Source of the DNA: an uncultured delta proteobacterium
GTDB taxonomy: Bacteria; Desulfobacterota; Binatia; UBA9968
Assembly: GCA_963760795.1 (NCBI GenBank)
Contig: CAVXEP010000013.1
Span: forward strand, 96,001 to 160,000
Direction: 5' to 3'
Length of the DNA: 64,000 bases
Below, in pieces: positions 61,066 through 61,521 of the stretch. The notes under the pieces were generated by a model, which worked only from the letters and a program-made list of their open reading frames with translations, was not told the DNA's origin and did not search any database. Position 1 is the stretch's first letter, and each line of letters begins with the position of its first letter. Made by a program: the position numbers and the translations under genes.

Positions 61066-61521
61066 TTAGAGCTTCGCCCGCGAAGCTTCTAAAACTTGAT
61101 GCATCGGCTCGATATCGATGACTAATGCCGAGAGCTGTAATTTCTCATCGCGCAGTGCTTCCGGTACCTGGCCCATCACGTCCGCTTCGAGCACATGATA
61201 AACGGGGATCTTGAGCGCCACGCCGGCTAGCGGCCCGGCAAAACTCGGATCGCCCTCGGTTACCGTCTCGGCAAATACTTCGACGCCGTTAGCCTCGCCG
61301 TTGCCCAACACCACCGTCAAATTTTCCGGACCATACTGGTCCGCCAGGCGCTTGATGACTCCTTGGTTTTCGAAGTTCATCGCGCCCGCGGCGGTTCAAA
61401 CAAAGCACTCAGTAGCCTGAAAAACTACCTCGTAGCCCGCGCCTTCGAGACACTCGGCGATGACCGGGCCGGTGACACCATCCCGTTCGCCGATGGCGAT
61501 GATTTTTTTACCCTTTTGCAT
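61066..61521 (-). CDS. grdA: Glycine/sarcosine/betaine reductase selenoprotein A (151 aa, Sec at UGA 61398-61396)
   Basis: ORFs 61396..61635 and 61066..61380 are one frame: [15 protein letters not shown]...[20 protein letters not shown]...[27 protein letters not shown] before ATG 61521. Confidence 0.92.
61341..61394 (-). promoter_or_regulatory. Putative bacterial SECIS hairpin
   Basis: Directly 3' of UGA: CCGCC/GGCGG, GGCGC/GCGCC, GATG/CATC and ACTTC/GGAGT pairings closing loop GAAAACCAA, which starts 25 nt after UGA. Confidence 0.7.

Follow-up and report, generated by a model that had tools for sequence, protein, structure and literature searches.

A selenoprotein A gene (grdA) with an in-frame UGA and a conserved bSECIS-type hairpin in an uncultured soil lineage of Binatia

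The window, a 64,000-nt stretch of one contig from an uncultured delta proteobacterium of the Binatia, carries near one end two minus-strand genes of the glycine reductase family. The first, grdC (61737..63107), encodes subunit beta of component C and matches NCBIfam NF040746 at 536.8 bits (cut-off 450). It is followed after 215 nt by grdA (61066..61521), a coding sequence of 151 codons and a TAA stop, delimited by translation with TGA read as selenocysteine (U) and by matches to Pfam GRDA and NCBIfam NF040748. Each gene is present in a single copy in the genome. The grdC-grdA adjacency recurs in relatives, and in close relatives the pair has the same neighbours as here, namely genes for an NMT1/SsuA-type binding protein, a HAD phosphatase and a transhydrogenase. 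The 36 closest named loci all come from metagenome-assembled genomes (MAGs), of which 14 are labelled Candidatus Binatia, 14 delta proteobacterium or Deltaproteobacteria, and 8 otherwise.

The spacer between grdC and grdA contains two palindromic dispersed repeats (61598-61625 and 61655-61682, minus strand, together spanning 61598..61682), which have 17 and 21 copies in the genome when up to 3 mismatches are allowed; the depth of soil-metagenome contigs is extremely high at 61600-61647. A long imperfect GGTTCC/GGAACC palindrome, read from the sequence and assigned to neither strand, lies across the grdA stop codon (60963..61076); its exact form occurs once in the genome, and it is possibly a terminator or a repeat element. 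The top Rfam matches to this palindrome (60960-61076) were miRNA families below threshold and were taken as spurious, and a scan for promoters and terminators gave counts not above those of shuffled sequences. Upstream of grdC, a gene for an ABC substrate-binding protein (63543-64000 and beyond) is represented by two adjacent same-strand ORFs of 218 and 119 aa, and may have been split by an indel or a stop. In a sister family (genomes G037 and G041), the gene order is grdC-grdA-grdE-grdB, near a gene for an ArsS-type radical SAM (seleno)protein; this operon adjoins a gene for a 499-aa protein with a weak N-terminal match to selenoprotein TsoB.

On the minus strand, positions 61521 to 61066 form a single 151-codon frame, the sole interruption of which is a TGA at codon 42 (61396..61398), whose identification as a selenocysteine codon rests on the sequence and on conservation in relatives. 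The surrounding codons, GAG TGC TTT GTT TGA ACC GCC GCG GGC GCG ATG, specify the peptide ECFV-U-TAAGAM and hence a CxxU redox motif, Cys39-Phe-Val-Sec42 (61396..61407). The list of open reading frames (ORFs) gives the gene as two same-frame fragments, one of 79 aa that ends in ATECFV (61396..61635) and one of 104 aa (61066..61380) that begins at a methionine five codons past the TGA. A reading made from the sequence alone had noticed these fragments and described them as parted only by the TGA; the sequence and the ORF list agree on this, with no further stop between them. The start codon of grdA is most likely the ATG at 61521-61519, which is preceded at a distance of 4 nt by an apparent GGAGG ribosome-binding site (61526..61530). 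This start is preferred because the 79-aa ORF is not conserved ahead of it: in 28 related genes the residues ahead of the methionine diverge, and the methionine and everything downstream are conserved.

The read-through protein matches NF040748 (selenoprotein A of the glycine/sarcosine/betaine reductase complex) at 180.7 bits against a cut-off of 130, with residues 3-149 aligned to profile positions 2-148 of 151, so that the match spans the UGA. It also matches Pfam GRDA (PF04723) at 178.3 bits (cut-off 22), again with the UGA inside the match. The protein shares 47-51% of its residues with GrdA of five cultured Clostridia and Negativicutes (Firmicutes), namely Hespellia stercorisuis, [Clostridium] symbiosum, Megasphaera cerevisiae, Colibacter massiliensis and Merdimmobilis hominis, in all of which the TGA falls in the same column. 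An alignment of grdA with 7 other GrdA genes (8 rows) has the TGA column in common to all of them and a centre of the form T-E-C-F-V-U-T-(A/S)-A-G-A-M. A search of PDB sequences returned no solved relative of GrdA, the best match (E = 0.76) being an amylase. The proposal that the two fragments conceal a GrdA with a CxxU motif is therefore borne out by a protein whose scores exceed curated cut-offs and whose alignment runs through the UGA, and, as far as sequence can tell, 61066..61521 is confirmed as a genuine selenoprotein A gene of the glycine reductase family. The description of this selenoprotein as hidden holds for a naive ORF list but not otherwise, since GrdA has long been known as a selenoprotein and has curated models of its own. 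Glycine reductase selenoprotein A (PF04723, motif CxxU) is listed among the established prokaryotic selenoproteins in the relevant passage of a 2026 review (PMC13188914), and the present case is a further member of the family, in an uncultured soil lineage.

Conservation of the UGA codon was assessed in an order-level search with the protein, which covered 61 genomes including the source genome. Exactly one TGA is present in all 49 genomes (the source genome among them) whose GrdA match spans residue 42, down to 41% identity; 3 further matches are fragments at contig ends that stop short of this residue. All 28 same-family assemblies (79-99% protein identity) carry the TGA, and in a sample of 251 genomes from the phylum it is kept in 16 of the 16 that have GrdA above the cut-off. 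Independent contigs from metagenomic sequencing also cover 61396-61398: at least 4 pieces from run X1, one 445-nt piece from run X3, and 2 pieces from run X15, an RNA library. The comparison took in three DNA runs from three studies and one RNA-library run, with no listed piece of run X4 reaching across the codon. Among the differences listed for these contigs there is no alternative letter at 61396-61398, the nearest being at 61369 and 61411. As most of the contigs are only 88-99% alike to the window, they come mostly from relatives, and they show the TGA in other soil populations, as distinct from the reads of the window itself; the X15 contigs across the codon, despite their origin in an RNA library, do not prove transcription. 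Relatives and independent contigs keep the TGA, in line with the expectation that homologs should align across it.

These data bear directly on the possibility that sequencing or assembly turned a TGC or TGT into this TGA, concealing a cysteine form of GrdA. The assembly does seem prone to indels, but its apparent errors are indels and not substitutions, TGA stands in 28 of 28 same-family assemblies, contigs of other runs offer no alternative letter at the codon among the differences listed, and the characterised members of GrdA use selenocysteine at this position. An error of this kind is very unlikely.

The source genome (6.58 Mb in 35 contigs, 88.9% complete) was searched for the selenocysteine machinery, as the sequence-only reading had suggested, and selA, selB, selD and tRNA-Sec were all found. 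The selA product scores 612.2 bits (cut-off 267.9); that of selB scores 410.5 bits (cut-off 242.25) and is full length, covering profile positions 2-580 of 581; that of selD scores 378.6 bits (cut-off 125), its gene having an in-frame TGA of its own. The genes selD, selB and selA cluster within 6 kb on another contig (C11:1948-7514). The tRNA-Sec, with anticodon TCA, was identified with ARAGORN as well as Rfam (76.7 bits; gathering score 47), and lies on the same contig as the window, about 30 kb past its end.

Selenoprotein B is also encoded. The genome has nine matches to Gly_reductase and five GrdB loci; of these loci, four are intact genes with a selenocysteine TGA, each adjoining a GrdE-type gene (C13:10175-11212, C20:125302-126339, C4:122678-123733 and C1:107265-108311, all outside the window). 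In each of these four paralogs the in-frame TGA lies at T-(S/A)-T-U-G-T, and with read-through the products (423-446 aa) give full-length matches to the subfamily model of selenoprotein B. A common hairpin, with 7 bp and a GGC loop, begins 11 nt past the UGA in all four, and in one paralog a C-G pair of this hairpin is replaced by U-A. This common hairpin indicates that the source organism uses classic bacterial SECIS elements. The fifth paralog (C4:155454-156504) consists of two overlapping frames separated by a frameshift, and is either a pseudogene or the product of an assembly indel.

It might be argued that the TGA of grdA is a true stop, the gene being a pseudogene or two small genes and the hairpin described below incidental. 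Translation table 11 does read TGA as a stop and the ORF list does give two fragments, and broken genes exist elsewhere in the assembly, as with the split GrdB paralog on contig C4 and the apparently split binding-protein gene upstream of grdC. Against this, an identical TGA is retained in all of the related genomes that span the site, at identities as low as 41%, and in the GrdA genes of cultured Clostridia; purifying selection acts on both halves of the gene, in which amino acids are conserved and synonymous sites vary; and the selenocysteine machinery of the genome is complete. Termination at this codon is accordingly regarded as very improbable.

Immediately 3' of the UGA, within the coding sequence, the transcript can form a bSECIS-type hairpin of 20 bp in four segments (61341..61394, minus strand), as judged from folding, shuffles and pairing in relatives. 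The segments comprise 5, 6, 5 and 4 bp (CCGCC/GGCGG, GGGCGC/GCGCCU, GAUGA/UCAUC and CUUC/GGAG) and are closed by a 9-nt apical loop, GAAAACCAA (61371..61363, minus strand), as the fold predicts. A four-segment stem-loop with G as its first loop base, directly after the TGA, had been noticed in the sequence-only reading, and the structure found here corresponds to it. The 71-nt segment from 61400 to 61330 folds at -30.8 kcal/mol, compared with a mean of -19.5 (sd 2.8) for shuffled sequences (z = -4.08), and 0 of 200 shuffles equalled it. The upper stem has 4 bp up to a 1-nt bulge, beyond which the stem goes on. The bSECISearch model, as given in the legend of a figure (Fig. 2) of PMC13188914, calls for a loop of 3-9 nt and an upper stem of 4-16 bp; by the same source, at least one of the first two loop bases must be G, the loop must lie 16-37 nt from the UGA, and the minimum free energy must be -7.5 kcal/mol or lower. 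The grdA hairpin agrees with all four constraints, having a 9-nt loop and a 4-bp upper stem, G as the first loop base, a spacing of 24 nt from UGA to loop, and an energy of -30.8 kcal/mol. The range 61395-61336, which had been put forward for folding, contains this hairpin, which folds well and is compatible with the bSECIS model. The G that opens the loop is invariant in 28 of 28 sequences. A search of 58000-64000 against Rfam at a permissive E-value returned no SECIS or selenoprotein RNA family.

Synonymous variation provides a second view of this structure. Diversity was computed from 28 same-family genes (L029-L056, 79-99% protein identity), with the more distant L057 and L058 left out; these counts take in locus L051 from the unpublished genome G004, and the conclusions are independent of it. 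Synonymous change is suppressed in a zone from codon 43 to codon 66 (61324..61395, minus strand), where diversity is 0.152 (23 codons) as against 0.453 for 111 codons elsewhere (Mann-Whitney p = 3e-9), and the lowest window of 24 codons begins exactly at codon 43. Stem codons inside this zone have a mean of 0.07 and codons of the loop or bulges (45 and 50-54) one of 0.42.

Pairing in relatives is consistent with this pattern. Of the cells formed by 20 pairs in 25 distinct sequences, 98.4% hold standard pairs, compared with 32-50% after a shift of the 3' partners by 1-3 columns. In eight stem pairs only one partner varies, and the result is always another standard pair, mostly G-U; 4 pairs deviate solely through single unpaired cells. 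Compensatory change on both sides was seen in 0 of the 20 stem pairs in the 25 distinct sequences, so the structure rests on conservation, wobble-compatible change and the dip at synonymous sites. A control in which pair counts were compared with shuffles was uninformative, 500 of 500 shuffles reaching every measure, because variation is too low.

The conserved zone runs past the main hairpin, and codons 61-66 (61324-61343) are nearly invariant at synonymous sites (0.035). A second or alternative small hairpin of 7 bp with a GUA loop (61327..61343, minus strand) was found in a 141-nt fold and is also paired in relatives; part of it coincides with the 3' arm of the main hairpin's lower stem, and 194 of 196 of its cells are paired in 28 sequences, compared with 138 of 140 for the competing lower stem. 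If formed, it would explain why the conserved zone continues to codon 66. The same 141-nt fold proposed a long-range lower helix between the UGA region and codons 69-75, which was not adopted because those codons vary normally at synonymous sites.

These observations can be weighed against a reading in which the UGA is decoded without SECIS or SelB, by general UGA reassignment, near-cognate read-through or Cys-tRNA(Sec), with the RNA structure serving, for example, regulation or mRNA stability. The loop is without the common G followed by G/U, no compensatory change was seen, and the conserved zone extends beyond the main hairpin to codon 66, all of which would be compatible with such a role. 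However, TGA is an ordinary stop in this lineage, since grdA of several relatives and three of the GrdB genes of the source genome end in TGA; the conserved zone begins exactly one codon after the UGA; and selB is full length. Decoding of this type is highly unlikely. Taken together, the conserved TGA, purifying selection, the use of TGA as an ordinary stop, and a constrained RNA from the next codon onward make it very unlikely that the codon is a true stop, an error, or decoded independently of SelB.

Reading of UGA codon 42 as selenocysteine, in the GrdA of a complex of the glycine reductase type, is very likely to be correct. Recoding, as suggested in the sequence-only reading, is supported by the family match, the selenocysteine genes, the hairpin and the conserved TGA. 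The analysis shows that the protein belongs to the family, where the UGA lies, that the RNA structure is conserved, and that the selenocysteine machinery and the partner genes are present; what we infer is that selenocysteine is actually inserted, how the chemistry runs and which substrates are used. At this codon, SelB with its Sec-tRNA(Sec) would bind the hairpin, which starts 4 nt downstream, and selenocysteine would be inserted with no termination, giving a protein of 151 residues whose redox centre is Cys39-x-x-Sec42. In analogy to the clostridial enzyme, a carboxymethyl group would pass to Sec42 from a substrate-specific protein B, for which at least 4 GrdB/GrdE-type pairs are encoded elsewhere in the genome. 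Cys39, by the same analogy, would resolve the selenoether to an Se-S bond, the acetyl equivalent being passed to GrdC, which is encoded directly upstream, and a thiol reductant would then re-reduce GrdA. The canonical complex has thioredoxin and thioredoxin reductase as its electron donor, and none of the genes noted around grdC-grdA in the window is a trx gene. The downstream part of the clostridial chemistry cannot simply be copied to this organism, because GrdD was not found.

GrdD is the alpha subunit of component C, a PlsX-like protein in which a cysteine carries an acetyl thioester and releases acetyl phosphate. In the source genome (88.9% complete), the best score against the GrdD model NF040747 is 24.5 bits (cut-off 350), and this candidate was rejected as the housekeeping protein PlsX, which scores 366 bits on TIGR00182. 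GrdD above the cut-off was found in 0 of the 61 order-level genomes (best 28.8 bits), which include closed genomes and many that are 97-100% complete; GrdC is above its cut-off in 44 of the same 61. The unpublished genomes G004 and G035 are included in these counts, with no effect on the outcome. The model itself works, since it finds GrdD at 516-590 bits in 5 of 5 grdA-bearing genomes of Clostridia and Negativicutes. In the phylum sample of 251 genomes, GrdA is present in 16, GrdC in 15 (all among these 16) and GrdD in 4, so that GrdD was not found in 11 of the 15 genomes with both GrdA and GrdC. The GrdA scores of this sample are highest in the four genomes with GrdD, at 240-247 bits as against 132-221 in the others. 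The operon of the sister family is likewise without grdD. If GrdD has the role given above, the last step in these lineages lacks an explanation without it.

The four intact GrdB paralogs have best scores of 378-490 bits, and none is at the cut-off for the glycine (602), sarcosine (800) or betaine (775) form. A variant of glycine reductase that is independent of GrdD is a tentative explanation, possible rather than probable, for this lineage and for many genomes of the phylum: one GrdA and one GrdC would serve several protein B paralogs, and the last step would be something other than the formation of acetyl phosphate catalysed by GrdD. In such a variant the acetyl group might, for example, be transferred from the thiolase-fold GrdC to CoA, water or a partner not yet recognised. 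A search of the openly accessible literature, covering titles and the openings of abstracts, found no description of a system without GrdD.

The value of the GrdA identification lies chiefly in annotation: naive gene calling would yield either two fragments or no gene at all, and would overlook the capacity of the genome to use glycine-type compounds reductively. An uncultured soil lineage of large genomes also gains a well-supported selenoprotein whose SECIS hairpin is unusually long; among the papers listed by a literature search, none was found that links this lineage (as Binatia or delta proteobacterium MAGs) to glycine reductase. The presence of GrdA and GrdC together with several protein B paralogs, in genomes where GrdD was not found, could point to a variant of the final, energy-conserving step, and the occurrence of this arrangement in a widespread uncultured soil lineage is of more interest than GrdA itself. 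Some of the same-order genomes with this arrangement are closed assemblies and, if they come from cultured strains, the idea could be tested there.

In comparison with known systems, the protein resembles GrdA of cultured Firmicutes in its length class of 151 aa, its TECFV-U-T(A/S)AGAM centre and the aligned position of its selenocysteine, and differs in that its gene belongs to an uncultured, GC-rich soil lineage. It also scores lower on NF040748, at about 175-181 bits compared with 240-247 for GrdA of genomes that bear GrdD. The canonical glycine reductase complex, as in Eubacterium acidaminophilum, consists of protein A, protein B (GrdB/GrdE) and protein C (GrdC/GrdD). The typical gene arrangement, in the passage of PMC13188914 that treats it, is a grdA-grdB operon, whereas here grdA directly follows grdC.

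The RNA element is like those of the bSECIS model in lying immediately 3' of the UGA within the coding region, and unlike them in having a loop at the upper size limit (9 nt) and an unusually long stem (20 bp in four segments). According to the corresponding passage of PMC13188914, bSECIS loops mostly have G followed by G/U, whereas the grdA loop has G-A. The hairpins of the GrdB genes of the same genome are far smaller and have a GGC loop, in contrast to the larger and differently shaped element of grdA.

Both subunits of component C are reported in Desulfovibrio desulfuricans G11, in which glycine reductase is up-regulated during autotrophic growth, as stated in a passage of PMC7547702; thus, the canonical form also exists among sulphate reducers. 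Compared with the canonical complexes of E. acidaminophilum and D. desulfuricans G11, GrdD was not found in the source genome or in its 60 relatives, at least 4 intact sets of protein B genes are present, and the genes are spread over several contigs and do not form one operon. What the source genome has in common with these complexes is the presence of GrdA, GrdC and GrdB/GrdE-type genes, with selenocysteine in both GrdA and GrdB.
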